The notes under the pieces were generated by a model. The model had not been told where the DNA came from, did no database searches, and saw only the letters and a list, made by a program, of their open reading frames with translations. Positions 9,331-44,640 of a stretch of 64,000 nt of DNA are shown here, piece after piece; within the stretch, counting starts at the first letter, position 1, and each line of letters starts with the position of its first letter. The DNA comes from Haliotis rufescens (lineage: Eukaryota): assembly GCF_023055435.1 (NCBI RefSeq), contig NW_025964359.1, positions 62,001 through 126,000 on the forward strand. Reading direction: 5' to 3'. The position numbers and the translations under genes were made by a program.

Positions 9331-10099
9331 GCAAATCCTTAATATATCGTCTCTTGCAATGTGAAGTCTTTTAGATCATGAATTTTTGCTTTGTTTCAGC
9401 GATTTATCATGCACCACATACAACTTAAGATGAAACAAAATTCCAATCTGAAAAACAAATGGAGGATACTTGATTATAATTGCAAGGGAACGATAGCTGG
9501 TCAGGCATCATTCCTAAATGCGTCTCTGCCTAACAATAAGTGGAAGACAAGTCTTCAAACGACGATAATCTAAATTACAAGAATAAAATAGCCTCTACGT
9601 TGTCTACGGATGATAATATCAATAACAAGAGAAAGATGCATAAAAAGAATGATGTGCCCTCCCCAAATAGAAGTTTGAATAATAAACAGATAGAGGTAGT
9701 TAGTCTGGTGTCCTCTTCATATGGTATTCATCACACCACCAATAAGAAGAACCCTGATCAGAAGTTCACCTTGCAAGACAACAGGCACAACCACAAGAGC
9801 CCGTTTGTCGATCAGGTCTCTTCAAATAGAGATATGAATAATGGCTATATAAAGGTAGATGATCTGCTGTTCTTAGAAAATGACAAAAGATGCAACACAA
9901 CAAAAGATGCTGATCACAAATCGTCTACCACTAACACCTATAATTACAAAACAAAGACAACTTATCAAGCATCTTCATCAAATGACAATTTGCAGAAGAA
10001 CCAGAAAGAGGTATCTGATGACGTGTCATCCCGTAATGATTACCTGAATAAAAAAAGAATGGTAGCTAAAACTTTAAGGTCACAAAAAAACAAATTAAA

Positions 10100-10570
10100 A
10101 GACAACCGGAGAAAGAAAGTTGAAAATATATCCTCTTCAAATGACAATCTAAACAATGACCAGAGAAAGGAATCTGAAAATATATCCTCTTTACGTGATA
10201 ATCATAAAAACAACAAAAGAAAAGAAGGGGAAAATGTGTCTTCTTCTGATGATAATCTGAAAAACAAGAGAAAGGCTAACGACCATATGTCTTCTTCAAA
10301 TGATAATCTGAATATCAAGAGGAAGGCTACTGGCCATGTGTCTTACTCAAATGATAATCTGAAAAAACAAGAGAAAGGCTAATGACCATGTGTCTTCTTC
10401 AAATGATAATCTGAAAAACAAGAGAAAGGCTAATGACCATGTGTCTTACTCAAATGATAATCTGAAAAAACAAGAGAAAGGCTAATGACCATGTGTCCTC
10501 TTCAAATGATAATCTGAAAAACAAGAGAAAGGCTAATGACTATGTGTCTTCTTTAAATGATAAAATGAAA
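10100..10570 (+). repeat. Coding tandem repeat, ~51-54 bp unit (DHVSSSNDNLKNKRKAN)
   Basis: Repeated GACCATGTGTCTTCTTCAAATGATAATCTGAAAAACAAGAGAAAGGCTAAT; some units have an extra A that shifts the frame. Confidence 0.9.
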
Positions 10571-12489
10571 AACTACCAGAGAACGGTAGCTGACAATGAC
10601 AACTTTAATGACAACCATAACATGTTAAAGATGGTTTATGACCAAACAAAGGCAATTGAACATGTGACATCTTCAAACGAAAGGCTCAACAACAGGGTGA
10701 AAACTGTTAATGAAGCGTCCTCCCAAAATTTAATTAATTTAATAACACAAAAAAGGTAGTTAATGAAGTGTCTTCTTCAAATGGTAACTCGAATACCAAC
10801 AGGACGAAAACAGTTGATCAGCGGTTATCCCAGCAAGACAATAAGATAAAGATGGTGGATAAAAAAGTATCTTCAGGTACCAACCTGAGAAACGATGAGA
10901 AATCCATAGATGACCACGTGTCCTCAACATATGATACCCTTCATAACACAAAGACGACGACAGCTGATCAGAGGTCGTTTCGAAATGCCAACCTTAATGA
11001 CAAAAGTAAGTCAGCTGGCCATAAGTCTTCTTCAAGTGACCACATTGATACAGATGAGAAAAACTTGTCTCCTCCGGGGTCTGCTTTTAATGACAAAATC
11101 ACAGCAAATAATATTTTGTCTCCCGATACCAGTCAAAAAAGACAGATAGAAAGGCTCGGACATGGTCGACATCACAAACTAGAAAACACAATGGTTATGC
11201 AGGTTGTTAATGAATCCATCTCCACTGCTCACATTTCTAAATCGATGTTCATCTCAAAGTCAGTAGTAGTCATGGCTACTAATGACATAACAGTATCTAC
11301 AAAGGCACATTGCCCGCTGATGCCACATAACAAAATACGCCCACAGCCCACACACAAGATGACAAAAGGTAAGGAAAAACAGATTGAAACAACGTCACTG
11401 AATAATACATACAATATAAATAAAGTTGTTTTGTTATAATTTGATTTTTTTTAAAACAACTTCAAGTGAACTTCATTAGTCATAAGTGTTCTTAAAATTA
11501 CGTTTGTTAAGCTCAGATGGTTTTCCCTTTGTGAACGTGTACAACTGATGCACATGTATAACTGTTTTCTCTCGTTATAAAAACAACGTGCAAATGGTTT
11601 TCTTTTAATAATGGTAGGCATATATCTTTTCCCAGAGCTATGTTCTCAGCATGATGGATATACCTCGTCACCCTGGAAGCGTCTTCCGCGTAGGGTAGAT
11701 TTCATTTGCCGGAACAGGAAATAGTCACTGGGGGATAAGTCTGGGTTCGAACAGTGACATCACCCACCCTACAGCCCAGACTTAGCCCCCAGGTGAAAAT
11801 CCCCAAGTGGCGTCTACAGCTTTGGTGCAACCTTGGTTCCTTTAAACCAAGGAAACTAGAAACCAGAGTCACGTTAAGGGGATCTTGGTACAGCCAACTT
11901 GGCGTAGCGTATTTCCAAAATTTCATGTTTCTATGAGGAACCCGTGGCGATGAGATCGTCCACAATTAGGTGAGCTTTGACCAATCCAATAAAGATGGCT
12001 GTGTTTCATTTACTTTAGCATCTGCTGGCCAAGATTATAATGCATACAAGAAAGATGGAACTCATTGGACACTGCGGACATTTGATTGTCATACAATTCA
12101 GTTTCAATATCTCTAACGCAAATAGCTATGAAAACTTAATTAAATAGCTATTATCGAAACTTGTGATAATGTCTGTTGTTTAATAAGCATGTCTCGTGTT
12201 GATCATTTACAGGCAAAATAACCACCTTTGCCTTCCTGATGAAGCGATTCTGGATTGGTCTTCAGGCACTGAAGTGTGGAAGCAAATGGGTAGATGGTAG
12301 CGACATGGTTCTAAACTGGTTTCCTAAACACGCGATAAAGGATGCGTGTATATGCGCACGAGCTGATCCTTTCGTTGGAAGGAGATCTTGCAAGAAAACT
12401 GCAGATGCTTTCATGTGCGAGATTGTGTGAAGATCGTGTACATCGATCTTACGAGGAAAACACGTTTCTGTTTGTATCTAAGCTTTGTT

Positions 12490-20715: not shown

Positions 20716-21957
20716 GTAATTCAGTACCTGACGGACAACTCAAGATTGAGAGTGTCGACAAAGCAGCATTCACAGCTGGATTTAACACGAACCTTTCTAA
20801 TGGCGACCATGATATTGATACAACCCAACCATTTAAGAACCCAGACTTGCGAAAGCTCAAAGATGATTCCATAACATCAAAGCTCGACCTAACAAATTCA
20901 ATCAAGGCGTTTGGAGAGGCAGAAAAACCAGCTAAACACATAAGTGATGAGAAGACAACCAATAACATTTCCTTTCATGATGGTCGTACGTCCTCTCCAA
21001 ATGGCAACCGAGATACGGCCACAGGGAAAGATGCTGATCAAACATCTTCTCCAAATGGTACACAAGATCGGGACACAGAAAAGAAAACTGATCACATGTC
21101 CTCTCCAAAAGGCAAACTAGAGGGGGACACGGGAAAAGAAGCTGATAACAGGTCCTCGGCAACTGACAAACCAGACAGTGACAAGGGAAAAGAAGCTGAT
21201 AACAGGTCCTCGCCCACTGACAAACCAGATAGTGACAAGAGAAAAGAAGCTGATAACAGGTACCCGCCCACTGACAAACCAGATAGTGACAAGAGTAAAG
21301 AAGCCGATAACAGGTCCCCGCCCACTGACAAACCAGATAGTGAAAAGGGAAAAGAATCTGATAACAGGTCCCCGCCCACTGACAAATCAGATAGTGAAAA
21401 GGGAAAAGAAGCTGACAACAGGTCCTCGTCCACTGACAAACCAGATAGTGACACAGGAAAGGAAGCTGATTACAAATTTTCTGCAATCGACAAACTAGAT
21501 AGGGACACGGGAAAGGAAGCTGATAACAGGTCCTCTCCAACTGACAAACCATATGGGGACGCCGGAAAGGGGGCTGATAACACATCCTCCTCAACTGACA
21601 AACTAAATAGGGACACAGGAAATAGAGCTGATCACACATCCTCTCCATCTGATCATCTCAAGCAACACCCAGGAACCAAAGATGATTTCATAAACCACAT
21701 GGGAAGGGTTGCTGATCAGATGACTTCAACAAATGGCAATGTCCAGGAAATACGTGGAAATACACCATCAATCATAAGAGCTAAAGATGAAGAATCGACA
21801 CAGAGAGGAGGTGTGCTATACATTCACGATGAGCCAACACAAGCTATGACTAAAAATAACAAACTAGTTTCGACTTTGAAGCCTGACATCAATGTGTCAT
21901 GCCCCCTGTGGCCACAAGAGGTCTTACGTAAACAGACTACGAGAGTGATGACTAAAG
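20716..21957 (+). CDS. Paralog B exon 2: Asp/Lys/Ser-rich tandem-repeat stalk
   Basis: Lies within open ORF 20583-21968; phase-1 acceptor TTCCAG|G at 20715 and donor AAAG|GTATAA; the end is homologous to paralog A. Confidence 0.75.
20990..21650 (+). repeat. Coding tandem repeat, 54-bp/18-aa unit (ADNRSSPTDKPDSDKGKE)
   Basis: About a dozen imperfect units visible in DNA and translation. Confidence 0.9.
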
Positions 21958-31562: not shown

Positions 31563-31568
31563 GTAATC
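31563..31568 (+). repeat. Left 6-bp target-site duplication GTAATC
   Basis: Identical to 43475-43480. Confidence 0.95.
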
Positions 31569-32113
31569 AGTAGTAACGTACATCGGTAATGGACCACTCA
31601 GATTTCTGGGACCGCTCAGATTTCTGGGACCAAGATGGCGGCACATCCGTTTCCGGTCACGTGACCTGCGCAGTGCATGATGGGTACCTGCGCGCGCATG
31701 CAAGATGGCGTCGCATCCGTTTCCGGTGGCGCGCATGCAAGATGGCGTCGCATCCGTGTCCGGTGGCGCGCGCATGCAAGATGGCGTCGCATCCGTTTCC
31801 GGTGGCGTGCGCATGGAAAGAGGGCGTCGCTTCCGTTTCCGGGGAGGAGGAGGAGGGATAGGGGGAAAACCCGGAGGAGCGCCCGTACGAGGGGGAACAA
31901 GATCGACAGGGTTGTTGTTCTTGTGTTGTTCTAAAAATAGAAATAGACGTGGGGTGGTGGTGGGGGTGGTGAAGGGAGGGAGGGAGGGGAGGGAGGGAGG
32001 GGAGGGGAGGAGGGGTGGGTTCACGGTGTGGTGGGGGTGGGTGGGAGGGTCGTCAAAGCAAAGGAGGAAAAGCTGTCTTTCGGGAAAGATGGGTGGCCCT
32101 GAAAAGGGCCGTT
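31569..32113 (+). repeat. Left terminal inverted repeat (545 bp)
   Basis: Reverse complement of 42921-43474 apart from a few substitutions and ~9 nt of indels in the G-tract. Confidence 0.95.
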
Positions 32114-32115
32114 GG
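32090..32115 (-). terminator. Histone-type 3' stem-loop #1 (CCAAC GGCCCT TTTC AGGGCC ACCCA), followed by GAAAGACAG
   Basis: 6-bp stem, TTTC loop and ACCCA tail; ~110 nt downstream of the zinc-knuckle stop, same strand. Confidence 0.9.
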
Positions 32116-32224
32116 AAAACAAACTGGAAACTGGAAACTGGAAACGGCAGGAACACTGGAACACTGGAAAAACTGCAAACGATGGGAAACGGGTAAAAAC
32201 AGTGGGGGCAGCATGACCCATGCG

Positions 32225-32851
32225 TTAGTCACTTTGTTCAGAGGATCTCACTTCTCCATCCTCTACTTCCATCTCATCCTCGGACGGAAGGTGTCGTCGG
32301 CGCTTTGAAACGTGTTTTCGTGAGGGGGACCTGTTCCGTTTTCTTTTCTCTAGACGAGGTGTGATGCCTACCCGGAGTTGTGTGAGACATTCTTTTAGGT
32401 CGAGGACATCGGAATGCATGTCTTCGATGAGATGAAGCACTTGTGCCACGGGTGTCACGGGTGTCACGGGGGCCACGGGGGTCACGGTTGCCACGGATGC
32501 CACGGGTGTCGACGTGGACGGTGTTGCTAACGTTTTCTTTCGACTGGGTTCTGGACAATCTGCAGCGAAATGACCCAGGGCTCCACAGTTGTAACAGCGG
32601 TCCAGGCGATGGGGAGTCTTCTTTCGACGGGGTTCTGGGCAATCTGCAGCGAAATGACCCAGGGCTTCACAGTTGTAACAGGGGCCCTGGTACTGCTTCT
32701 CCTGCTTCTCCTGCTTCTCTTGACTGTTCAGCTTCGGACAGACATAGTGACGGTGACCTTGAGTGTGGCACTCGGTACATGTCACTTCAGGGCAGTACAG
32801 GTAACTGTGACTGTCGGTCTGGCACATCCTACAACTGTATCGAGCTGACAT
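32225..32851 (-). CDS. Four-CCHC zinc-knuckle protein (208 aa) with basic NLS and C-terminal EDGEV motif
   Basis: Four Cx2Cx4Hx4C motifs; start placed at CCATC-ATG-TCA (32851), downstream of the TATA box at 32901-32910 (alternative ATG 32863). The ORF-track extension to 33208 runs through promoter DNA. Confidence 0.85.
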   Translation of the reverse strand: MSARYSCRMCQTDSHSYLYCPEVTCTECHTQGHRHYVCPKLNSQEKQEKQEKQYQGPCYNCEALGHFAADCPEPRRKKTPHRLDRCYNCGALGHFAADCPEPSRKKTLATPSTSTPVASVATVTPVAPVTPVTPVAQVLHLIEDMHSDVLDLKECLTQLRVGITPRLEKRKRNRSPSRKHVSKRRRHLPSEDEMEVEDGEVRSSEQSD

Positions 32852-32900
32852 GATGGGTTTCATAGAATGCAGTGTGTGTGAGTGGCTTCGCTCTTGTTTT

Positions 32901-33165
32901 GTTTTTATAGGAGAGGCACTGACACCCTGCTTCCTGATTGGTTCCCCAGGCAGCGCCCCCGATTGGTTCGTTCCGGGGCCTGGCCCGCACCTCGGTTTTC
33001 CAAAACGGACCGACCCCTGTGTTTCTTTTCCATAGGAAATGGATTTTACCATGGGAGAGAAAGCACAACCCCGGTTCGGCCAATCAGAGCCCCGCCCGGT
33101 CCGAGCGCCGCTTCTGATTGGTCGACCACCCAGGCTTCGGATTGGTCCGATTTCGATCCGGTTTT
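32901..33165 (-). promoter_or_regulatory. Repeated multi-CCAAT + TATA promoter, copy A
   Basis: Several CCAAT/ATTGG boxes and CTATAAAA; homologous to copies B-D. Confidence 0.8.
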
Positions 33166-33400
33166 TATCGGGGTGTGCATTTCGATCCTGTTTTGTTTTT
33201 TTCTTCATCCTACAGACAACATAACACGACTATGCGTTTTTAACAAAAAATTTAATCCCCCTGATCACATGAACCAACACCACAAAACAAAAGTCACAGG
33301 ATGAGGGGGGACATCCCTGTGATTTTTGTGAACACGAGGGAGGGGTGACCGCGAGGGTAGGAACGTCTGACCACTTTGAAAAAAAAACAAAAAAACGTTG

Positions 33401-33931
33401 TCACTTGGGGTGAACAAGACACTCGACTCTTCGTTTCCGTGCTTCTTGGGACACCAAACGTCTGTATTTTTCGTTCACTTCTCCATCAGGACAAAACACA
33501 CACAAGTATTCGCAGGGGACTTTGGCATGCTTCAGATGTTCTTTCCAGGGTTGGTCTGTGGCTTCCCATTGGCGGAGTGCCACACCGCAGCAATAACAGG
33601 TCACACAGTCCCCTCGTCCTGGATAGAAATAGCCAGCCATGGCCATGTCATAAGGGGTCTGGGTCATCTGTTGAGGCCACGTTTTAAAAGACCTCAGACG
33701 TTCTTGAAATGAATCATAGTGGGGATGAGAAGGTTGACACAAGGTGTAAGAAGGAAAAGGTCTCTCCAGAACGTCACCGAGTCGACACCTGTCGTCCATC
33801 AAGAGTGTGTCGTCCATCAAGAGTGAACGTTTTCTCGCTTCTTGTTCTCTCGCCTTTTCAGACACCCACTCGGAATCGGTGACGACATCTCGGGAGGATG
33901 ACATGGCATTCATAGAACGTCTTTGCTCCAT
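33401..33931 (-). CDS. Single-BIR inhibitor-of-apoptosis-like protein 1 (176 aa)
   Basis: ERLRSFKTWP...AMAGYFY...VTCYCCG..LRQWE..DQPWKEH...PCEYL BIR signature; no RING; upstream duplicated CATAAAAG boxes (~33975, ~34027). Confidence 0.92.
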   Translation of the reverse strand: MEQRRSMNAMSSSRDVVTDSEWVSEKAREQEARKRSLLMDDTLLMDDRCRLGDVLERPFPSYTLCQPSHPHYDSFQERLRSFKTWPQQMTQTPYDMAMAGYFYPGRGDCVTCYCCGVALRQWEATDQPWKEHLKHAKVPCEYLCVFCPDGEVNEKYRRLVSQEARKRRVECLVHPK

Positions 33932-34771
33932 GATGACGGTGACTTCACTGAAAGAAGGTCTGAGGGTTCGCCTGCTTTTATGAAACTCTCCACCCTACAC
34001 CCTTCAACGGAAGGTCATGACTTTAGCTTTTATGAAACTCTCCACCTCCTCCATCTCCTCACGTGACGTCATCCTGTGTTTGGGTTGACGGACACACGGC
34101 ATGATCCATGACATGATCCATGACATGGATATGACATGGCACACGGGGAGGGGTGTGGGGATGGATGCGTCCTGGAATGACTGACACCAGGCAGCTGATC
34201 TTTCAAGCATGGCCTTTCTCTTTTATCTATTTTTATTTTAATGTTACACTTTGGTGTGCACTGACATGACAGAGGCACAGACAGACAGACGGACAAACAA
34301 CATCGACGACATCTCAACTCAACCTCTACCCTCGGTTCGGCACTCTATTGGAGTTGAGATCAATCAAGACACAAAGAGTCAGTTCAATCAATCACTGTTT
34401 AATCATGAAAAAACCAATCACAACCGGATACAATGGAAATACGAAAAGTCATTGGAGGAGGGAGTGCTTTGCATGTCCCTACAACCACCACAACAACAAC
34501 AACAACAATAACGCGACAACGTTTTCCTCTTCCATCTTCAAGCTCTTCCATCTTCAAGTCCCTAAGAGGTGGTCCTCCCTCAAACCTGTGAGAGGCCCAA
34601 CCGTTCAACACGTACAGTCTATGGCCTCCCTGAAACAGACATGACACATCACTTGATCACGGTTGCAGCTGGCGTGTTGACAAAGTTCTTCGAGTGAAGA
34701 GGAGGATCACCATAAGATGTGATCCTCAGATGCGATAGGCATGTCATCATGTGTCACTATGCTGTCATAGG

Positions 34772-35816
34772 TCAACATACTATGAGCTCCAGCTCACAGG
34801 CATGACACATCACTTGCCCGCTGTTGCAACTGATGTATCTTAACATGTTGTTGTGTCGGCAAACACGACATTCGCGTTGTAGGGGAGTGAGTTGAGCTTC
34901 TCCATAAGGATCCAGGTCAACGTTGTCATCATCATCATCGTCGCAAACCATGGGCGTACCTGTGGAGTAGACATGAACCTCTTCCGGGGATGCTGGTGAC
35001 CAAGAAGCCTCGAGCAGGGGAAGCGTGTCCAGATCCATGGAAGGGAGAGTGGCCACCTTGAGCGCTTCATGATCATCGAGGTCACCCGTCGCCATCGTCA
35101 CAGGGGCATTCGGTGAATAGATGGGCTCCCGAGGGGTTTGTTCCCACCACTGTTCTAGCACGGACTGGGCTGAACTGACATCAGGGGTCCTGTCAATCAT
35201 AAGGACAGAGTCCATTTAGGATAGGCATAGGTCATGCATATGAATCACATCAAGAATGACTGAGACAAAGAAGAGCAGGGTACTTACAGTTGTTCTTGAG
35301 GAGAGATCTTCAGAGATAATTTCTTCCGTGATCGTCTTTTTGCAGGCGTTGCAGGTGTGGCAGGTTTCAAAAAGGATGTCCCCCTCGTGTCGATGTCTGT
35401 TGTCGCCGCAGTCGTGGTTGCTGTGGCTGCTGTGGTGGTGGTGGTGGTGGGGACTGGCGCTGTGGGGGTGGGGGTGGGGTGGGGGTGGGGGGTGTTGCCG
35501 TTGCTGTGGGGGTCACCACGGCTGTGGGTTTGCGTGTCTTTTTCTTCTGGATCTTCTTGATCGTCTTCTTCGATGTGCCTTTCTCGGGTTCAGTCAGCTT
35601 CCTCATCTTTGAACGTATCTGGTCGCACATCAGGTTGTCGCCCTTCGCACGTAACTTGGCGTACGCGTCGTCGGTCTTCATCTTTAAACACAGCAAGTCG
35701 TACACTTCACCCCACAGTTCAGCAGTCATGTTACCGTTCCCCTCTCCACTGCTTCCTTGGCCACTCATGTCGCTTCGTGTCTTGTCATTCAACCGTTTCG
35801 ACATGTTGTTCGACAT
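34772..35816 (-). CDS. Predicted two-exon protein (~315 aa): basic/Thr-rich N-part, acidic MVCDDDDDD, C-terminal Cys4 zinc finger; one frameshift
   Basis: Intron 35287-35190 (GTAAGT...GACAG, 98 nt) joins KKLSLKISPQEQL to TPDVSSAQ in frame; one missing base in the G-run at ~35476-35479 links this frame to ORF 35367-35816. Confidence 0.65.
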
Positions 35817-36029
35817 GATGTTGTCCGGATGTTCTGTTCGTTGTTGTTGTTGTTGTTGTTTCTTTCCAAGTCTTCACGGAGGTACGTCAACACTTGATGG
35901 TACTCTCTCCAAACACGCGTTTCTTCCAGATAAAACGCCAACAACCAACACAACGTGAGGAACATCAATCAGAGGGGACGATGTTGTTGCTTGGTCCGTT
36001 CAGTGAAAAGTGATGACCGGAGAGCGTCG

Positions 36030-36265
36030 GTCGTATTAAAAGCCACGGAGGTCCTGCTTTCTGATTGGCCCGTTCCGATGTCTGACTTTCACCTTGGTTT
36101 TCCAAACTGGACCGACCCTTGTGTTTCTTTTCCATAGGGTTAGGCTTGTAGCGTGAGAGAGAAAGCACAACCTCGGTTCGACCAATCAGAGGCCACCCTC
36201 GCCCGAGCGCGGCCTCTGATTGGTCGATCATCCAGGCTTCGGATTGGTCCGATTTCGATCCGTTT
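36030..36265 (-). promoter_or_regulatory. Repeated multi-CCAAT promoter, copy B (more diverged, TTTTAATA box)
   Basis: Homologous to copies A, C and D; upstream of ATG 35816. Confidence 0.75.
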
Positions 36266-36318
36266 TTTTCTGTAGGGATCCATGTCGATTCAGTTTCGAT
36301 CCGCTGTCATGAAAAATT

Positions 36319-39300
36319 TTAGTGAAAGTCGTCTCTGTACCCAAAGGGGAGCGTGTCTACAGGTAGCCCTGTGATGTCGTCGTAGACGAGACGTCGCTTG
36401 TCGTACACGGTACGATAGTCTTTTCGGGTGGGTCGGGTCACGAGTGCGTTTTCGTGCCGAGGGCCTTTTCGAATGATCTGATGAGGGTAATCCAAACTGA
36501 TTTTCTCCTCCTCTTTCCCAGGCCGTTGTCCCAGTATCAGTCCTTTCATGGTGTCAAAGTTGAGATGGCGTTGGTTTCGGTAATTCAAAGTGAACCCTCG
36601 CACTTTGCAGGTCGTGCGCGTTCCATCGGGTCTGGGGTTCATTAACTCGTAGCCATAGTTTTTGGGGCCTCCCGACACAAACGTCTTGATGGTGTTTCCG
36701 TCCAGTTCATCCGTAAACTCACCCAACGAATGACCCAGCTCTGGATTCGCGTCGTGGGGTCGATGAATGTAAATGACGCTGTCCGTGTCAAAGTACAACA
36801 CCCTGTGGTCCACCAGGGCAAGGGTCTCGTACAGCTTGAGACGTGCTTGGGCGGTGACCCAAGCAGCGATGGCGACGTTGAAATGAGAATGAGGGGTTTG
36901 GAATTCTTTCTGCTTGGTATAGGTCACTTCCACCATGTGTTCGTTGACAACGACCACATCCTCGATGGTATTGCGTTCATCCCTCCACAAGGCAAAGTAC
37001 TGTACAGTATCGTTCATATACACGTTCTGACTGTAGTCTACCCGTTGCCCAAACTTGCCCCAGAGCGAATTCAGTTGCATCTTGGCAATCGTGCGACGTC
37101 CTGGATTTTTTTCGATGCGGTCCTTGTCCAACCCAATGCCTTCTTTGTCGTAGATCTCCTGGATGTACGCGTTGTGATCCGTACATCCTTCGGGGTATCC
37201 GCTGGCTTCGAGCTTCTCCTTGAAATGTCGATCGATGTAAGTGTCAAAGAGTCCCACTTGCTGGGTGTCGGGGTCATGCTGTGCAAAGGTGTCAAAATGC
37301 CAAACGTCGTAGATCTGAAGCACCCGGTAGTCATACTTCTTCACGGCTTCCTGGAGTTCTACGGTGGCGTACGTCCCCACCCATGACCTCTCTTCGTCCG
37401 TGTGCTCGCAGGGGGAGTCTGACCGGGTATCGGCACACGTGCGGCACAAAGGACAGAGCAGTTTGCCACCCGATCTGTAAGGCAGTAGCGGATGGTAAAG
37501 TCGTTTCGGGGGTAGGACACGGCATTGGATCAGGCCTTTCAGTTCAAACAACGTGTCCACAGGGGGTTGATGGAGAAGGGTCGGGTGTCCCGTGGGAAAC
37601 GCTCCGGTCTTACAAATGTAGGGATAAAGGGAACAAATATCGATGTACTTGATGGTTTCACCTTCTTGGGCTTCGTAGCATAATCGCGTCGCATTGGTGC
37701 GTCCTCCATAGAAGGCATCGCGAGGGTTGAGCGGCCCGGGGACGTGGATACAGCGGGGTCCCTGCAAGAAAGCATGCAGTGCGGAGTCCTCCCGTTGCAT
37801 TTTCGTAAACTCGTGCTCCCACAGGGTGACGATCCGTTTCACCTCAGGGTGTTGACTCAAGAGACTCAAGCGGTAGTGGGTGTCGGTGTAACGGGCTCCC
37901 AACGACGAGCCCAGGACGGGATGCGGTTCTCCACGTCGGGTCTTGTGACAGACCTGGCACCCATGCCAGAAACAGCCCAGGAATTCGTAGACGGTGCCTG
38001 TCGCTGGATCGTAGCCATCCACGGTGTACCGATGTTGACCCCCTCCACACGTGAACTCTTTTTCACCGCCATTCCTAGCGTGCTGGAGGTGCAGATGGGG
38101 GTGCGTTTCCATCAGATAGTGGAGCCAGTGCATACAGGCCTGGGAATAGTTTCTCTTGGGTTGGTAGCCTTGAGATGGGAGAATGGCGATGGTATTGGGT
38201 TTCAGGTCGTGTTTTCGGAAGGATTTGATGGTGAACGCTGCAGCTGTCATCACTTCCACAAAGGGATCCATGCCCACCGAGTGGATGGCGTTCTGTCGGA
38301 AGTCGGCGCATCCCCGTCTCAAAATGTCCACATCGCTTTGGCAGTAGGTTAAAAGTTCTCCTTGTAAGTCGAACAAGGCTCCTTCTTGCACTTTTTGGGT
38401 ATGCCACTGGAGGAAGGCTGTGCGTTCCGCGGGAGACATGCCATCGGGATCGTACGTGACGGCTGGTGGATAGGGACCTCTGTAGGTTTGGTTGACTCTC
38501 GTATTAAAAAAGTGTGGAAAGTACCCTTTCTTCATTTCTTTCAGCCCAAAGCTCTTGGGAAAGGCTTTCAGGGGGTAAGGGATGAAATTTAAGCTGTCTT
38601 CGAAACATAACCGTCCCAGGGTCATTTGCAAAATTTGTTGGTCATGGCGAATCTTGGTGGGGAGTGTCACCAGGAGGGGGGACAGACCCTTCAGGACTAA
38701 GTGTAAATCATAGGATCGTGCATTATGGGCCATCACATAAATGCGATCCTCCTTCGTGACTGTATGGCAGGAGGTGTTCTTGTTCTTTGGCTTCTTTGTT
38801 TTCTCCACTTCCATGACCTCTTCCCCCTCTTCCCCCTCTTCCATCTCCTCCCCCTCTTCCCCCAACTCCTCCCCCTCCTGCTGGGGTGATGCCTGTCGTT
38901 TGGAAGTGTGCTTTCTTGAGGGGGTGTCATCCCGTTTTCTTTTTTTCCCCAGGTGAGCTGTCGTCCCCTTGCGTGTGCTGCCCTCCTCTTCCTCTGGGTG
39001 GGGCTTCTTCTTGGGTATTTCAGACAACGTGGTCAACCACACACACACATCATGTCGCGTGGTGGGGCCTCGAAACACGATCTCACGGCTGGGACCATAC
39101 CCTTCTTCTCTCCATGGACAGTGTTCGCACAAGTTCTTGCTCACTTCACTGATGCATCGTCCACATCCTAGTTGCACCACGCACAAATTTGGAATGTGTT
39201 CCCCCGTGTCTTGCATGCATTCAAAATCGTAGAAGGCGTATTGAACATGGTCTCGTAGGGGATGTTGTTCCTCTTCCCCCTCCTCCTCCTTCTCCGCTTC

Positions 39301-39795
39301 CTCCCCCTCCTCCCCCTCCTCCCCTTCCTCCTCCTCGTTTTCTTCACGGAGAGGCGTCATGTAACAGCGATGATCTGGGGTCATGGGTTCTCGGCACACA
39401 AAGCAGGGATGTTCTTCATCGAAGCACGCGTGGTGAGCCATGGGGGTCTCCAAGACGCGGACCAACTGAAAACAGTTCGGGCACCTGTGAATCGATTGAC
39501 AGGCGCTGGGTTTTCCCTCTGACGGTGACTGGAGATGCCGGGTGTAACACATTGGATTGGGGAACCAACCTTGACATGTCAAGCAAGGGATCCCGTGCTC
39601 TTCCTGGGGTCCGCAATAACTAGAGTAGAAGCAGCGGTAACAGCGGTATTCCTTGGTGCAGGGATGTTTTTCGGGATGGTCGTAACGTTTGTCACAGCGT
39701 TTGCAGTAATGGTTAGAGCCATAAAAAGCGGGCATGGAAGTGATGATCATGATGGTAGAGATGCAGCACGGTGGCGTGGGGTGGAGTCTCATCAC
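36319..39795 (-). CDS. polB: Protein-primed family B DNA polymerase, main part (Cys-rich region, exonuclease, Vsr-like insertion, polymerase)
   Basis: ExoI FYDFEC, ExoII AHNARSYD, ExoIII YCQSDV, YGGRT, motif A DICSLYP, motif B KMQLNSLWGKF, motif C YFDTDS, GPKNY; VDGYD..VYEFLGCFWHGC insertion. Confidence 0.95.
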   Translation of the reverse strand: MMRLHPTPPCCISTIMIITSMPAFYGSNHYCKRCDKRYDHPEKHPCTKEYRCYRCFYSSYCGPQEEHGIPCLTCQGWFPNPMCYTRHLQSPSEGKPSACQSIHRCPNCFQLVRVLETPMAHHACFDEEHPCFVCREPMTPDHRCYMTPLREENEEEEGEEGEEGEEAEKEEEGEEEQHPLRDHVQYAFYDFECMQDTGEHIPNLCVVQLGCGRCISEVSKNLCEHCPWREEGYGPSREIVFRGPTTRHDVCVWLTTLSEIPKKKPHPEEEEGSTRKGTTAHLGKKRKRDDTPSRKHTSKRQASPQQEGEELGEEGEEMEEGEEGEEVMEVEKTKKPKNKNTSCHTVTKEDRIYVMAHNARSYDLHLVLKGLSPLLVTLPTKIRHDQQILQMTLGRLCFEDSLNFIPYPLKAFPKSFGLKEMKKGYFPHFFNTRVNQTYRGPYPPAVTYDPDGMSPAERTAFLQWHTQKVQEGALFDLQGELLTYCQSDVDILRRGCADFRQNAIHSVGMDPFVEVMTAAAFTIKSFRKHDLKPNTIAILPSQGYQPKRNYSQACMHWLHYLMETHPHLHLQHARNGGEKEFTCGGGQHRYTVDGYDPATGTVYEFLGCFWHGCQVCHKTRRGEPHPVLGSSLGARYTDTHYRLSLLSQHPEVKRIVTLWEHEFTKMQREDSALHAFLQGPRCIHVPGPLNPRDAFYGGRTNATRLCYEAQEGETIKYIDICSLYPYICKTGAFPTGHPTLLHQPPVDTLFELKGLIQCRVLPPKRLYHPLLPYRSGGKLLCPLCRTCADTRSDSPCEHTDEERSWVGTYATVELQEAVKKYDYRVLQIYDVWHFDTFAQHDPDTQQVGLFDTYIDRHFKEKLEASGYPEGCTDHNAYIQEIYDKEGIGLDKDRIEKNPGRRTIAKMQLNSLWGKFGQRVDYSQNVYMNDTVQYFALWRDERNTIEDVVVVNEHMVEVTYTKQKEFQTPHSHFNVAIAAWVTAQARLKLYETLALVDHRVLYFDTDSVIYIHRPHDANPELGHSLGEFTDELDGNTIKTFVSGGPKNYGYELMNPRPDGTRTTCKVRGFTLNYRNQRHLNFDTMKGLILGQRPGKEEEKISLDYPHQIIRKGPRHENALVTRPTRKDYRTVYDKRRLVYDDITGLPVDTLPFGYRDDFH

Positions 39796-40573
39796 ACTTG
39801 TACAACAGTCTCTGACCCACCTCTTGACTGTAGACTTTCAGTTGATAATGCAGACGGGTCAAGGCTCGTCCCACGCGTGCGAGGTCGTCCAGACCCCGAC
39901 AGGGGCCTTCGGGCAGGCCAAGGCTTCGAAACAAGGCCCGTGCCCGTATGCCTTGAACGTCGACGCGATCCGTTCTCGTCAGTCTCTTTCGCTGGGCGGT
40001 CCATGCTGGGGTCAGAGGGTGAGGCTTGTGGGCATAATGCTGTGCCACCACCAGGGCCCGTCCCAAACAGGATTGATCTTCGTTCTTGATCCGTACGATG
40101 CACTTTTTGCGTGTTAAAAAAGCTTCGAGTCCAATCACGTTTTTCAGCCGGGGAGCACCACTGCCCGATCCTACCCTGTCGGGATCTGCGACGTGTACTA
40201 AGGTCACATCCATGGTGGCATCGATGTTCAGGTCTTTGTTGGACTGTTGGACTTTTTCCACGGCTTGCAAAATAGTTAGCCCATGGAGATCTTCAAAACG
40301 TCGAAAGGGTATCCGTATGGGTGTGTTCAAAGCGGGATGATCGATACCTAGACCAATACGATCTCCCTTCTGACCTGATATCTGTTCATAAAAGTCATCG
40401 ATCACCCTGTCAAATAAAGCTGGCAGTTCCATGGGGACGCGTTCCGGTGGTACGGTGTTCAAGTAGTCTGGGTTGAAAGTCAAACAATAGGTATGATTAG
40501 CAGTTCTTAACCGTCTGGAGCGGGTGATATCTTTCCTCTCCAAACGATAGGGCGTACTTTGGTTGCTCGTCAT
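39713..40573 (-). CDS. N-terminal part of pPolB (terminal-protein-like region + OTU-like protease), frameshifted from the main ORF
   Basis: IKNEDQSCLGRALVVA (Cys) and LHLYHHDHHF (His) resemble the vOTU catalytic motifs of Polinton pPolB; overlaps the downstream ORF at the expected junction. Confidence 0.8.
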   Translation of the reverse strand: MTSNQSTPYRLERKDITRSRRLRTANHTYCLTFNPDYLNTVPPERVPMELPALFDRVIDDFYEQISGQKGDRIGLGIDHPALNTPIRIPFRRFEDLHGLTILQAVEKVQQSNKDLNIDATMDVTLVHVADPDRVGSGSGAPRLKNVIGLEAFLTRKKCIVRIKNEDQSCLGRALVVAQHYAHKPHPLTPAWTAQRKRLTRTDRVDVQGIRARALFRSLGLPEGPCRGLDDLARVGRALTRLHYQLKVYSQEVGQRLLYKCDETPPHATVLHLYHHDHHFHARFLWL

Positions 40574-40654
40574 GATAACGATGTGTATCTGATGAACGTC
40601 TGTACTCTAAGAGGTGCTGAACGTCTGAGGGATGGACAACCCTTCCCCAAAACA

Positions 40655-40940
40655 GGATCGAAATCGGACCAATCCGAAGCCTGGATGGCCGACCAATCAG
40701 AAGACAGCACCGACCAATCAGAAGACAGCACCCGAACCGAGTTGTGCTTTCTCTCCCATGGTAAAATCCATTTCCTATGGAAAAGAAACACAAGGGTCGG
40801 GTCGTTTTAGAAAACCGAGGTGCGGACCAGGCCCCGGAACGAACCAATCGGTGCGCTGCGTTTTGGACCAACCAGGAAGCAGTGAGTTTCGATCCGGTTC
40901 TTCCCCTATAAAACAAGCGTGGATTCGAGTGGGTCAGTGT
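40655..40940 (+). promoter_or_regulatory. Repeated multi-CCAAT + TATA + Inr promoter, copy C (between divergent pPolB and BIR2)
   Basis: Four CCAAT boxes, TATAAAA at 40907-40913, TCAGT initiator at 40934-40938. Confidence 0.85.
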
Positions 40941-40962
40941 ATGTTACATAAAATCATCTAGA

Positions 40963-41421
40963 ATGGCTGAAACAAAGAAGAGTGGTACGACGACGACAAC
41001 GCGTGGCGAAGATGCGGTGATGGATAGTGCAGAACCTCGTGAATGCTGGAGTAAGAGTCATGCCGAGGAGGCGGTGTCACTGCTCAGTCAAACACCATCG
41101 CACTATTATCTACGCTTTGAAAGAAGGCTCGCTTCGTTTGAGACGTGGCCCACGCAAATGTATCAGACTGCTGAAGAGATGGCCCATGCGGGCTTTGTCT
41201 ACACTCAGGGTGCCGATGGGGTGTGCTGTTTCCAATGTGGGGTGCGGCTGAGACAATGGGCACCCCACGACGATCCTTGGGCGGCACATCACAAGTGGTC
41301 CCCAGACTGCGACTACCTCAAGCTAACCGGGTTGGTGAAACACCAGAAGAAGCTACAACTGCACTATCTCTGCGAAGAGAAACAGAGGTACACGAATGAC
41401 GTAGCACGGCCGGCTGCCTAG
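40963..41421 (+). CDS. Single-BIR inhibitor-of-apoptosis-like protein 2 (152 aa)
   Basis: RRLASFETWP...MAHAGFVY...CFQC-x16-H-x6-C canonical BIR; no RING. Confidence 0.93.
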   Translation: MAETKKSGTTTTTRGEDAVMDSAEPRECWSKSHAEEAVSLLSQTPSHYYLRFERRLASFETWPTQMYQTAEEMAHAGFVYTQGADGVCCFQCGVRLRQWAPHDDPWAAHHKWSPDCDYLKLTGLVKHQKKLQLHYLCEEKQRYTNDVARPAA

Positions 41422-41534
41422 GTTTCCCGTGTCCTGCGTACCCGTTCAAGTTCCCGTTCAAGTTCCTGTTCAAATGTTTTTCTTTTCTTGGTTGGACCCA
41501 CAAGTGGACAGCAGCAGAAAAGTTTTTCTTCCCC

Positions 41535-41560
41535 AAAACGGCCCTTTTCAGGGCCACCCA
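41535..41560 (+). terminator. Histone-type 3' stem-loop #2 (AAAAC GGCCCT TTTC AGGGCC ACCCA), followed by AAAAGACAA
   Basis: Perfect 16-nt hairpin at 41540-41555, ~118 nt after the BIR2 stop; outside the TIRs. Confidence 0.92.
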
Positions 41561-42235
41561 TCTCACCCAAAAGACAACTTTCTTCCTTTGCTTTGCTAAA
41601 CCCTCTGCCCCTCCAAAACAAAGAACCCACATCCTCCCCCTAGACCTCTTGGAGGCACACGTCTAAAAATACAATACATAGATATAAATAGATATTAATA
41701 GAGTTAGATCCATAGATCCATAGAGACACGTAGTACACCGCGTCAAACATCACGTGTGCATGAACACACGCGTCACAGTACGCCTGTCGACCTACACGAG
41801 TGTCAACACCTCGGTATCCTTAAATAATAATAATAATTTGAAAACACACACGTACAGGGTACGACGTTTGCATGGCAACACACAGTACAACCATGACGTT
41901 CACATCGCGACACGAAGTGCATGACGCGTGCAAACGTCACGCAGGTGTATCGATTTTTCTCTATTCATCTCACTACGACACGACTCGATACACACACACA
42001 CAGGACACCACGTTTTGACTGACCACACGTTATTCTATGCATCAACGTCAACGTCTGTTTGAAGACATACACACACACACACGCACACATGACATTCCGA
42101 TTGGCATGGGAGTGACACCACGTACATCGCGTAGGCATTCCCACGTTCATGTCTACCTATGAAGGTCCACCTTCCTTTAGCATTCAGACGACCGTCTACC
42201 TCAAAAAATATCAAGGCTACCCAAGAAGAAAAAAA

Positions 42236-42520
42236 ACGGATCGAAATCGGACCAATCCGAAGCCTGGATGGTCGACCAATCAGAAGCGGCGCTCGGACCA
42301 GACGGGGCTCTGATTGGTCGAACCGGGGTTGTGCTTTCTCTCCCATGGTAAAATCCATTTCCTCTGGAAAAGAAACACAGGGGTCGGTCCGTTTTGGAAA
42401 ACCGAGGTGCAGGCCAGGCCCCGGAACGAACCAATCGGAGCTGCGGGCTGGCGAACCAACCGGGAGGCAGGGTGTCAGTGTCTCTCCTATAAAACAAGCG
42501 TGGATTCGAGTGGGTCAGTG
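42236..42520 (+). promoter_or_regulatory. Repeated multi-CCAAT + TATA + Inr promoter, copy D
   Basis: Four CCAAT/ATTGG boxes, TATAAAA at 42488-42494, TCAGT at 42515-42519. Confidence 0.85.
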
Positions 42521-42553
42521 TCACTTGTAAAAATTGATTGAAAAGAAAGCATC

Positions 42554-42913
42554 ATGATGAGTATCAACAACAACAGCAACAACAACAACAGCACCAGCAA
42601 CAACTACCCCCTGAAAGAAAACTGGGATTTAGAGATTGCTACAGTGGCACAACCTTTGCCCGGGTGTAAAGAAACATTACCATCACCACCACCACCATGG
42701 TCTCCAGCGTGGCAATGTGCCCGGTGCCATGGGGGCCTGCCCGTCTATGCCCTTGGTACAAGGGTACGGGATGGGACTTTCGAGTGCGTCTACTGTAAGA
42801 CCATCCTCAAGGACACCTACGTGCGTCGGTTAACGCACACCAGTAGGTGTCCTGTGAGGAGACAGATGAAAGTCCACCCGTGCCTTTGTACCATGGGATG
42901 CACAACCATGTGA
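42554..42913 (+). CDS. Small Cys-rich zinc-ribbon-like protein (119 aa), function unknown
   Basis: CARC-x19-CVYC; sits exactly between promoter copy D and stem-loop #3; GCATC-ATG start context. Confidence 0.75.
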   Translation: MMSINNNSNNNNSTSNNYPLKENWDLEIATVAQPLPGCKETLPSPPPPWSPAWQCARCHGGLPVYALGTRVRDGTFECVYCKTILKDTYVRRLTHTSRCPVRRQMKVHPCLCTMGCTTM

Positions 42914-42918
42914 GCATC

Positions 42919-42944
42919 AAAACGGCCCTTTTCAGGGCCACCCA
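42919..42944 (+). terminator. Histone-type 3' stem-loop #3 (AAAAC GGCCCT TTTC AGGGCC ACCCA), followed by GAAAGACAG
   Basis: Hairpin at 42924-42939, 10 nt after the stop at 42913; forms the inner edge of the right TIR. Confidence 0.9.
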
Positions 42945-43474
42945 TCTCTCCCGAAAGACAGCTTTTCCTCCTTTGCTTTGACGAGCCTCCCACCCCCACC
43001 CCCCACCACACCGTGAACCCACCCCTCCTCCCCTCCCCTCCCCCTCCCTCCCTCCCCTCCCTCCCTCCCTTCACCACCCCCACCACCACCCCACGTCTAT
43101 TTCTATTTTTAGAACAACACAAGAACAACAACCCTGTCGATCTTGTTCCCCCTCGTACGGGCGCTTCTCCGGGTTTTCCCCCTATCCCTCCTCCTCCTCC
43201 CCGGAAACGGAAGCGACGCCCTCTTTCCATGCGCACGCCACCGGACACGGATGCGACGCCATCTTGCATGCGCGCGCCACCGGACACGGATGCGACGCCA
43301 TCTTGCATGCGCGCCACCGGAAACGGATGCGACGCCATCTTGCATGCGCGCGCAGGTACCCATCATGCACTGCGCAGGTCACGTGACCGGAAACGGATGT
43401 GCCGCCATCTTGGTCCCAGAAATCTGAGCGGTCCCAGAAATCTGAGTGGTCCATTACCGATGTACGTTACTACT
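42921..43474 (-). repeat. Right terminal inverted repeat (554 bp)
   Basis: Reverse complement of 31569-32113; ends ...TTACTACT. Confidence 0.95.
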
Positions 43475-43480
43475 GTAATC
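43475..43480 (+). repeat. Right 6-bp target-site duplication GTAATC
   Basis: Identical to 31563-31568. Confidence 0.95.
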
Positions 43481-43639: not shown

Positions 43640-44640
43640 CTGATGGCACACAAGTTCAGTAGCGTGTATGGCCACCATGTGCGTTGACAACTGCCACACA
43701 ACGCCTCCGCATGGACCTTGTGATGCTTGTGAACACATGATTGGGAAGACGACGCCATTGTTGCTGCAAAATGGTGCCAAGAACTTGCAAATTCTGTGGT
43801 TGGTTCTGGAGAGTGCGCAGACTTCTGCCAAGAGCATCCCAGACGTGTTCGATGGGATTGAGGCCGGGAGACCTTGACGGCCAGTCCATGACGTTGACTC
43901 CCGCTTTCTGAAGGAAATTCCTTTGCAAAATTGCTGTGTGGGGTCTGGCATTGTCGTGTTGGAAGATCAAACCGGGTCCATGTGCTGCCATAAAAGGCAG
44001 AAGTTCTTGTGCCAGTGAGTGAGTGAGTGAGTTATTATTTAACGTCACATGGGCAATATTTCAGCCATATCGTGACGAGTCTTGTGCCAGTACCTGGTCG
44101 CGGTAAGCAGCAGCGTTGAGGTTGCCACGGATGACAAGAAGCCTGGAACGTGCATTGCCACAAAAAGCACCCCAACCCATGACACTTCCGCCTCGAAATC
44201 TGTCAACTTCCTGTACACAACACTGGGTGTAACGTTCATGACGGCGCCTCCACACCCTCGCCCTACCATCAGCAAATCGAAGATTAAATCGGGATTCATC
44301 ACTGAAGACGACTTGATTCCAATTCCTCTGAGTCCATCGTAAATGTCGCTGTGCCCACAATTGACGTTGACGTCTGTGTAATTGAATCAGAATTGAATCA
44401 GTATGGCTGAAAACACGTGCGGTATTATGGCCACGTGACCAGTTGCACGTGAAAAAACACTTTTGCCACTAAAGTGCTGTGCACATGATTTTGATCGATT
44501 CACCTGCACAAAAAAGGGTGTTATCTGAAGACAATACGTGTCCATTACTGTTTAAATACACAATAAGGGCCCACAATGATAACTGGTCAAAATGTTAAAA
44601 TTTTAGGATTGTGAAGTTTTTAATTTGGTTCGGTATATAT
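43640..44640 (-). mobile_element. Internally deleted Tc1-like element with a nested SINE tail
   Basis: FSDESRF, QHDNARPH and SPGLNPIEHVW; (GAGT)n insert at ~44016-44079 flanked by duplicated TCTTGTGCCAGT. Confidence 0.85.

Follow-up and report, generated by a model that had tools for sequence, protein, structure and literature searches.

What lets a DNA element that has no integrase insert between perfect target-site duplications (TSDs)? The question is raised by an element of 11,906 bp at positions 31569–43474 of the window, by which we mean the whole 64,000-nucleotide stretch of Haliotis rufescens contig NW_025964359.1 analysed here. Its termini read AGTAGT...ACTACT, its terminal inverted repeats (TIRs) are 97.7% identical, and GTAATC flanks it on either side. 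An earlier sequence-only reading had described intact termini, near-identical TIRs and a 6-bp TSD, and all three were borne out. Three of the four sequencing runs examined (X3, X15 and X16, from three studies and under two organism codes) contain the empty site, where contigs depart from the window at 31568 and continue as the sequence 3' of the right GTAATC (29/30 letters). Because that empty site holds one GTAATC, the duplication is genuine. Two presumed-RNA contig sets cover the flank and the element equally, and the small-RNA run amounts to 11 reads.

Long TIRs, AGTAGT ends and a 6-bp TSD are hallmarks of Polintons/Mavericks, whose defining features are set out in the available text of PMC8097293, PMC4028283 and PMC11071308. 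The window element differs from the Polinton norm, in which the protein-primed polymerase (pPolB) and integrase share one element of 15–20 kb: it is 11.9 kb long and lacks an integrase.

Genes and scars of the window element

A Pfam scan of eight ORFs in the element recovered pPolB (PF03175), two BIR proteins and one zinc knuckle (Table 1); no integrase, ATPase, protease or capsid was found by Pfam among those eight. The sequence-only reading had counted pPolB plus five small genes. The polymerase is indeed there, but it is broken by a frameshift in this copy, and the small ORFs conserved among copies number six. Several sister copies carry pPolB as a single ORF of 1,350–1,417 aa, and this uninterrupted frame rules out a programmed frameshift. 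Going by the domain order in the available text of PMC11071308, the N-terminal part may be a putative terminal-protein/vOTU region.

Transcription diverges at 40.6–40.9 kb, in agreement with the outward switch point read at 40.6 kb. One promoter per gene, as had been proposed, is only roughly true, because four promoter-like blocks of ~210–290 bp serve seven genes. The first of these holds what we take to be CCAAT boxes and a TATA-like motif, and the longer frame of the zinc-knuckle ORF reads across the block.

The integrase/virion block had been said to have left no remnant. That is correct for coding sequence, but non-coding scars persist: two stretches that adjoin the ATPase gene in the partner family B described below, and a block after BIR1 that we read as the right-hand boundary left where the virion block was lost. 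When partner DNA was compared with 32114–42920 by blastn, only promoter and flank matches appeared, and the longest coding overlap was a few start codons. BIR1 occupies the place where B's second ORF begins, and the start context is common to both.

Table 1. Features of the window element (window coordinates).
Feature	Position	Strand	Remarks
Left target-site duplication, GTAATC	31563..31568	+	Single copy in empty allele
Left TIR, ~545 bp, begins AGTAGT, ~39-bp repeats inside	31569..32113	+	Same family as segment B TIRs
Zinc-knuckle ORF, 2x zf-CCHC	32225..33208	-	Pfam; probable start near 32851-32863, judged from sequence
Promoter-like block 1	32899..33169	-	Part also upstream of ATPase in B
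Non-coding block after BIR1	33183..33334	-	After candidate protease gene in B and one unsplit fossil
BIR1, single-BIR (IAP-like), 176 aa	33401..33931	-	Pfam
Scar, sequence just downstream of ATPase gene in B and old copies	33918..33990	-	
Scar, sequence just upstream of ATPase gene in B	34178..34234	-	
Acidic Cys-tailed ORF, 147 aa (sisters 173-174 aa)	34772..35215	-	No Pfam family
Basic Thr/Pro-rich ORF, 149 aa (sisters 175-180 aa)	35367..35816	-	No Pfam family above cut-off
Promoter-like block 2	36060..36269	-	
pPolB exonuclease and polymerase part	36319..39792	-	PF03175, E 8e-35; 96% identity to unbroken sister
pPolB N-terminal part	39713..40573	-	Split off by frameshift near 39.74 kb
Promoter-like block 3, between divergent pPolB and BIR2	40649..40940	+	
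BIR2, single-BIR, 152 aa	40963..41421	+	Pfam
Promoter-like block 4	42228..42521	+	
Cys-rich ORF, 119 aa	42554..42913	+	No Pfam family; shared variants constrained (0.24)
Right TIR, terminus ACTACT	42921..43474	-	
Right target-site duplication, GTAATC	43475..43480	+	

Two families with complementary genes

The sequence-only reading had suggested a check, to catalogue what lies between copies of the TIR. This turned up another class of element, which shares the TIRs and carries integrase, ATPase and major capsid genes and a candidate protease gene, but no pPolB. Both families were catalogued in one genome. Family A (~11.8 kb, at least 55 loci) holds pPolB and six small genes, without integrase or virion genes. 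Family B (~10.3 kb, at least 63 loci) holds genes for an ATPase, an integrase and a double-jelly-roll capsid, with candidate penton and protease genes, and lacks a polymerase; its TIRs belong to A's family and its TSDs are its own. By tblastn, B genes alone were present at 22/22 B loci examined, and A genes alone at the A loci examined. Complementary essential genes thus sit on separate segments, which have their cis-acting ends and one promoter piece in common. Where both ends could be called, TSDs were perfect for 14/15 A-type and 11/12 B copies, and copies of either family are up to 98–99% identical. The B-specific TIR-to-ATPase junction was nearly full length, at 90–100% identity, in about 24 of the 42 matches listed. 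Perfect TSDs also flank a third class, which has these TIRs but is non-coding.

The integrase, found on B only, has rve and chromo domains (Pfam), and the ATPase matches Pox_A32 (E 3e-6); A keeps only the flanks of that gene. The major capsid protein (MCP), also confined to B, is modelled as a double jelly roll (pLDDT 91.4; atlas DJR-like score 0.98), and the top Foldseek matches of the model are Sputnik (E 1e-17), PBCV-1 and iridovirus capsids. The penton candidate is a 348-aa ORF upstream of the MCP gene with no Pfam match; it falls in atlas viral clusters at 0.97–0.98, one of them named Sputnik minor capsid V18/19, with recognition below the tool's threshold. The protease candidate has sub-threshold matches to Peptidase_C5 (E 0.08) and ASFV S273R (E 0.6), is 33–36% identical to the ORF in the same place in canonical relatives, and shows a His/Asp/Cys motif by eye. 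PDB sequence searches with the MCP and the protease gave nothing significant.

Ten near-full-length A copies (~12 kb) are colinear and have ten different perfect TSDs, which rules out a random deletion and marks A as the stable family that the sequence-only reading had said such copies would support. That reading had also offered a satellite or linear-plasmid-like element. Canonical Polintons of 16–17.5 kb with open integrase frames do occur in this genome, and A might borrow their integrase or be a chance deletion. However, their TIRs have no blastn match to A's TIR, which B's TIR shares, and the stability of family A tells against it too. The option is also weakened because the partner, having no polymerase, needs one and so depends on A in turn; we regard it as extremely improbable.

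TIR variants are common to A and B and intermixed. The nearest TIR lies on an A copy for 9/19 B ends, the TIR tree requires 10–12 changes of A/B label, and neither A nor B forms one group in any bootstrap tree. The B label is nonetheless clustered on the tree, with a value as low in 2/500 shuffles.

We consider it probable that A and B are the halves of a Polinton that has split, each half depending on the other and inserting on its own. The existence of class B supports the earlier suggestion that the window element is the replication part of a two-segment Polinton and that the other segment shares its TIRs. Integration in trans, also suggested then, is supported because A lacks an integrase. 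In such a system, A's protein-primed polymerase would replicate the two linear molecules, starting at the AGTAGT ends that they have in common, and B's integrase would insert either segment. B's ATPase, capsids and protease would package both, probably with one segment per particle, and A's BIR proteins may hold off apoptosis.

Fossil copies, selection and the alternatives

In this genome, pPolB and integrase occur together in old fossils and in other families, whereas young copies are split. pPolB adjoins B-type genes at ~14 loci, of which seven were read and 7/7 are decayed. L134 and L135 are unsplit fossils with the gene order pPolB-cargo-ATPase-...-MCP-PRO and related TIRs, and four further old A-like copies (L132, L133, L138, L139) retain the ATPase. 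The unsplit copies read are decayed and diverged (pPolB 71–72%, ATPase 86–87%). The canonical relatives of 16–17.5 kb have B's gene order beside pPolB, so the unsplit form is the ancestral state. Recombination between A and B at the shared ATPase could explain some of the unsplit fossils. The sequence-only reading would have been refuted by longer elements containing both modules from which the window copy derived by a single deletion. Such elements do exist, but only as old decayed copies, and no single deletion of them yields the window copy.

One route to the present state would begin with a lineage in which a BIR gene replaced the block after the ATPase, giving old A, with the ATPase lost later. 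Another lineage would have dropped the pPolB side to become B, after which spread of the unsplit form would have ceased. With dozens of germline copies of each half, every cell would contain both, which would lower the usual cost of co-infection.

The chief alternative is that A and B are two defective derivatives spread by an intact unsplit helper that is now lost, unassembled or found only as a virus outside the genome. Fossils with related TIRs exist, and the perfect TSDs of the non-coding class show that the system readily mobilises dependents. The genome searches scored only part of the candidates (pPolB 61/561, 144/300 and 150/296; ATPase 150/523; MCP 108/293; integrase 99/2141) and may have missed a young unsplit copy. 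Among the scored matches, however, no young copy carries both modules. Every unsplit copy that was read has decayed and diverged further than the A and B copies. The window insertion is young, its empty site being common. No pPolB lay within 40 kb of any of the 37 ATPase matches of at least 90% identity (0/37, compared by eye). What each family has lost is exactly what the other retains, and constraint is seen in both. We judge such a helper unlikely.

Two loci had appeared to link the modules. Of 58 A-type pPolB matches, one (C290) has a B gene less than 30 kb away; it is an A copy with its own TIRs and TSD, nested in an older decayed cluster. At C446, pPolB (92%) and MCP (70%) lie 15–18 kb apart, but the MCP is outside the element because TIR motifs stand directly upstream of pPolB.

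Our selection test compared the ratio in variants shared among copies with that in singleton variants. Purifying selection acted on the capsid (0.18 shared vs. 0.79 singleton, p 8e-8) and on pPolB (0.30 vs. 0.52, p 8e-5), and the pooled B genes differ likewise (p 6e-11). Shared-variant ratios were 0.34 for the penton candidate (p 0.03) and 0.13 for a small core-like ORF (p 0.001); selection was not significant for the ATPase (p 0.32) or the protease (p 1.0, 10 shared variants). All these ratios are far above that of cyprinid Mavericks, reportedly ~0.001.

These results bear on whether A and B complement each other inside the cell only, as a two-part transposon that carries capsid genes along and makes no particles. 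The protease and ATPase are without significant constraint, and both halves are germline-resident and can therefore meet without particles. Against this, the major capsid, penton and small core-like ORF are constrained in shared variants, and A, A2, B and the non-coding class are all ~10–13 kb, a common size that suggests a packaging window. We find a particle-free system decidedly unlikely. On balance we lean towards a multipartite animal dsDNA polintovirus whose segments are separately packaged and integrating, with the whole transition (unsplit ancestor, ATPase intermediate, halves and non-coding parasites) fossilised, and with germline integration having made the split affordable.

Comparison with known systems

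A literature search (outside Repbase, subscription journals and bioRxiv supplements) found no bipartite Polinton; in PMC12220804 and PMC8502044 the word "bipartite" is used of networks and bidnaviruses. A metagenome scan with pPolB gave a single 27% match, and a scan of viral contigs with the MCP gave none. According to its methods, one published screen (10.1101/2023.08.22.554363) required each locus to have the five core proteins inside a 20-kb span, a filter that neither A nor B would pass. Elsewhere, many Polintons classed as "defective" may be segments. The main model for multipartite origin, in which defective deletion genomes complement one another, draws its support from theory and from laboratory passage in the available text of PMC5680193 and PMC10159356, and Table 1 of the former, a 2017 review, has no multipartite dsDNA family. 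Here a single genome preserves the ancestor, an intermediate and both products, and the junctions can be placed to within tens of bases, which makes the order and timing of the split testable.

Polydnaviruses are likewise segmented dsDNA resident in the animal germline. They make domesticated, replication-deficient particles and have nudivirus-like ancestors, and their individual segments are not known to transpose with TIRs and a TSD of their own. The Kluyveromyces lactis plasmids pGKL1 and pGKL2 are cytoplasmic, each with its own polymerase and its own TIRs; we know of no capsid or integration in either. The latter are paired linear DNAs with a TP-fused, Polinton-derived pPolB (PMC11071308, available text), and Table 2 of PMC5680193 has polydnaviruses as its sole segmented dsDNA family.

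Bidnaviridae (BmBDV VD1/VD2) are also bipartite and linear with a common terminal structure, and one Polinton-derived pPolB serves both segments, which travel in separate capsids according to the available text of PMC4061559 and PMC3036147; A and B would probably be packaged singly as well. Bidnaviruses have ssDNA, a parvovirus-type capsid, segments of 6–6.5 kb and no described integrase, whereas A and B have a double jelly roll and an integrase. VD2 is thought to come from gene replacement, not from Polinton fission.

Short non-autonomous Polintons exist; like Tlr elements and transpovirons, they lack part of the core and receive functions in trans. In A and B, by contrast, the dependence is mutual. 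In the available texts, transpovirons keep their own replicase and transposase (10.64898/2026.10.13.758929), and Tlr elements have their own helicase, integrase and capsids (PMC4028283). The nine reduced Polintons described in PMC4028283 kept pPolB and integrase and lost virion genes; here the integrase goes with the capsid genes. Stand-alone replication modules have already been proposed (10.64898/2026.10.13.758929), and A and B give a tangible example of the independence that has been suggested for the replication and morphogenesis modules of these viruses. With the Polintons/Mavericks themselves (Polintoviricetes, mollusc pPolB2-like lineage), A and B together share all core genes (penton and protease as candidates), AGTAGT ends, long TIRs and the 6-bp TSD, and B's gene order is that of canonical relatives in the same genome. 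Polintons are normally one DNA, whereas the genes of A and B lie on two that integrate separately.

The window element and family A

The TIRs and 6-bp TSD proposed in the sequence-only reading were confirmed. In three of the four public runs mapped to the region, the left flank passes through a single GTAATC into the right flank; because this is the empty site, the GTAATC repeat is a true TSD and the window's insertion is young. The gene content needed revision. Pfam recognized pPolB, two single-BIR proteins (BIR1 and BIR2) and a zinc-knuckle protein, and gave no family for the three other small ORFs, where five small genes had been read. The pPolB is broken by a frameshift near 39.74 kb in the window copy and forms one ORF of 1,350–1,417 aa in several sister copies. 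Haliotis supplies the nearest named homologs both of this pPolB and of the capsid of the partner family (78–98% identity), which makes an abalone the most probable host; a nematode preprint also lists a Haliotis pPolB.

The window TIR has at least 49 matches in its own genome (40 of 351 candidates scored), and a pPolB search gave 58 family-type matches at 55 loci, a lower bound. We call this pPolB-bearing family A. The interiors of sister copies align colinearly with that of the window element (96–99% identity), and a perfect 6-bp TSD flanks 14 of the 15 A-type loci with both ends called. Among these 14, ten are near full length (11.1–12.0 kb) with ten different TSDs, which agrees with the suggested stable family of about 12 kb; three carry internal deletions or duplications, and one (11.4 kb) is a variant, A2, with pPolB and an Ala-rich ORF in place of the BIR cargo. 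Canonical Polintons of the same genome (16.3–17.5 kb; pPolB 39–53% and MCP 49–52% identical) have unrelated TIRs. That comparison and the family structure both argue against A being a satellite of canonical families or a chance deletion, which we regard as very improbable.

At window 31575-31595 and in all termini examined, the roughly 15–20 bases just inside AGTAGT varied widely among copies but nearly always agreed between both ends of a given copy, as if one end serves as template for the other during replication or integration. Labels such as PZ, core-like ORF, CCAAT and TATA are putative.

Coordinates of features (C, contigs and L, loci of the window's own genome; W, window)
Feature	Location	Size	Details
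Element under study	W 31569-43474	11,906 bp	About 52% GC inside, about 40% in surroundings; TIRs 545/554 bp, 97.7% identical, AGTAGT at start; GTAATC adjoining on both sides
Scars	W 34178-34234; 33918-33990		Sequences on either side of ATPase in B
Scar after BIR1	W 33183-33334		Block found after protease in B
TIR piece, 3' of BIR2	W 41534-41595	62 bp	Copy of inner TIR end; perhaps where a once shorter right arm stopped
Tc1/mariner remnant (DDE_3)	W 43656-43991		Transposase, beside element
Tc1/mariner remnants	L029:1063-1596; L134:5334-6142		Around C1 B copy; inside unsplit fossil
A-rich tandem arrays	W 9945-10892; 20936-21706	51-54-bp units	Related; probably coding repeats of host gene
A2 copies	C179:7185695-7197068 (L125, L126); C68:~30918500-30928706 (L121, L122)		pPolB, one Ala/Thr-rich ORF (recurs in L134 and old A copy L133), long inverted repeats in the interior, BIR genes absent
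B copy	C1:46151509-46161860	10,352 bp	TSD TTGGCC
Non-coding element, TIRs as A/B	C179:251860-263940 (L005, L032, L006)	12.1 kb	TSD CACATT
Non-coding element, TIRs as A/B	C46:18906793-18920159 (L013, L040, L041)	13.4 kb	TSD CACATC
Distant family (MCP ~31%)	C68:6002959-6008165 (L108-L110); C423:615-5838 (L107)		Integrase-MCP-protease-ATPase-BIR
Short inverted pairs	C1:34856285-34862385; C13:17947369-17953762; C113:5641497-5648535		Integrase (38%) and ~520-aa ATPase frame; possibly palindromic integrase-ATPase elements
Canonical Polinton	C605:10375737-10391999 (L094-L096)	16.3 kb	TIRs ~1.6 kb; BIR gene in each arm

A partner family with the same ends

On C1, a TIR pair surrounds DNA unlike the window interior. 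In this copy of the partner family, B, all genes share a strand: ATPase (Pox_A32), three conserved ORFs, integrase (rve + chromo), a small hydrophobic ORF, a probable penton, a small Gly/basic ORF, the major capsid and a probable protease. A structural model of the major capsid (pLDDT 91.4) has matches to the capsids of Sputnik, PBCV-1 and iridovirus (E 1e-17 to 1e-14); the evidence for penton and protease is weaker. Integrase and MCP searches gave at least 63 B loci. All 22 examined hold B genes only, and no B gene lay inside the TIRs of any A locus examined, as the anticipated partner class would have it. Both ends were called in 12 B copies: the TSD is perfect in 11 and matches at 5 of 6 bases in the other; two copies on C379 share one site, probably through duplication. 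Undeleted copies measure 10.1–10.5 kb. About 24 of the 42 matches listed for the junction from TIR to ATPase promoter cover almost all of it, and this recurrence indicates a single origin of B, which afterwards spread in that form.

The two families evolve together. Several TIR variants exist, the same ones on both families, and part of the promoter block is also common to them. The nearest TIR belongs to the opposite class for 9 of the 19 B ends and for 4 of the 23 A ends. A tree of 44 ends requires 10–12 label changes, and none of 200 bootstrap trees unites either family, many forks being weak and the A copies initially chosen by likeness to the window TIR. B still clusters beyond random expectation (2 of 500 shuffles).

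Selection was assessed by a crude count, with no codon model, of nonsynonymous/synonymous ratios in 18–22 copies per gene, setting variants in at least two copies (arisen during replication) against singletons (mostly decay). Shared ratios were lower for MCP (0.18 vs 0.79, p 8e-8), pPolB (0.30 vs 0.52, p 8e-5), integrase (0.37 vs 0.85, p 0.03) and penton (0.34 vs 0.79, p 0.03); pooled A cargo gave p 0.007, and no significant difference was seen for ATPase (p 0.32) or protease (p 1.0). A two-part transposon that forms no particles is improbable; in its favor, the virion side is represented here by genes.

Unsplit copies and older forms of A

Of 58 A-type pPolB matches in the initial lists, one lay less than 30 kb from a B gene; it is a nested insertion with its own TSD. 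Deeper searches, compared by eye, gave about 14 loci with family-type pPolB within about 6 kb of B-type ATPase, integrase or MCP. The linked loci are diverged, with pPolB pieces mostly 57–77% identical (one 84%) and frequent stops, and none of 37 ATPase rows at ≥90% identity had pPolB within 40 kb. Among the seven linked loci read, two are unsplit: L134 has a related TIR, the pPolB 3' part, an Ala-rich ORF and ATPase, then penton, core-like ORF and MCP, and L135 has the pPolB 3' part, integrase, penton, MCP and protease, then a promoter and BIR gene. A third appears to be represented by the decayed cluster on C290. Longer elements with both modules, one half of what the sequence-only reading named as evidence against itself, do exist, but among diverged loci; as to the other half, the window copy is not a single deletion of them. 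An unseen unsplit helper behind A and B is unlikely; it gains some room from the scope covered, which was part of the candidates and 7 of the roughly 14 linked loci, in one genome.

An older A form (L132, L133, L138, L139) carries pPolB, cargo, ATPase and BIR1, and integrase-capsid block genes were absent from the stretch read. The missing block had been thought to leave no remnant, yet the window retains non-coding scars of it (table), and BIR1 starts where B's second ORF starts. Because canonical Polintons of this genome show B's gene order adjoining pPolB, plus BIR genes, the unsplit state is ancestral.

A probable bipartite Polinton among known systems

A and B have complementary genes and the same type of ends, they integrate separately, both are under constraint, and fossils preserve an ancestor and an intermediate. 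The reading of A and B as a bipartite Polinton is supported. From established Polinton biology, A's pPolB would start the copying of both DNAs by priming at their AGTAGT ends, B's integrase would create the 6-bp TSD of each, B's ATPase, capsids and protease would build particles, and the BIR proteins would block apoptosis. A third, non-coding and largely palindromic class, composed of B's left end and tandem repeats, has perfect TSDs, which supports the view that the ends suffice for mobilization in trans. Its members look like defective parasites of the pair, and about 12 partial matches of the TIR-ATPase junction search may be more of them. All four types (A, A2, B, non-coding) are near 10–13 kb, against about 17 kb for canonical elements (PMC8097293), a hint that each particle may take up a single segment. 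Since each half has dozens of copies in the germline, both would be present in every cell, which could lower the co-infection cost of a split genome.

The distant MCP family had no pPolB match in 29 kb examined on C68; it has either a very different polymerase or is a second polymerase-less family.

No bipartite Polinton was found in the literature searched, with Repbase, subscription journals and supplements outside its scope, and PMC5680193 (Tables 1-2) names no multipartite family with dsDNA and gives Polydnaviridae as the only segmented one. Capsid-less Polintons retain integrase (PMC4028283), whereas A has none. A and B together would work like a Polinton, but A alone fails the definition, which asks for pPolB and integrase within a single element. 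Among bipartite systems Bidnaviridae come nearest, differing in their ssDNA and parvovirus capsid (PMC4061559).
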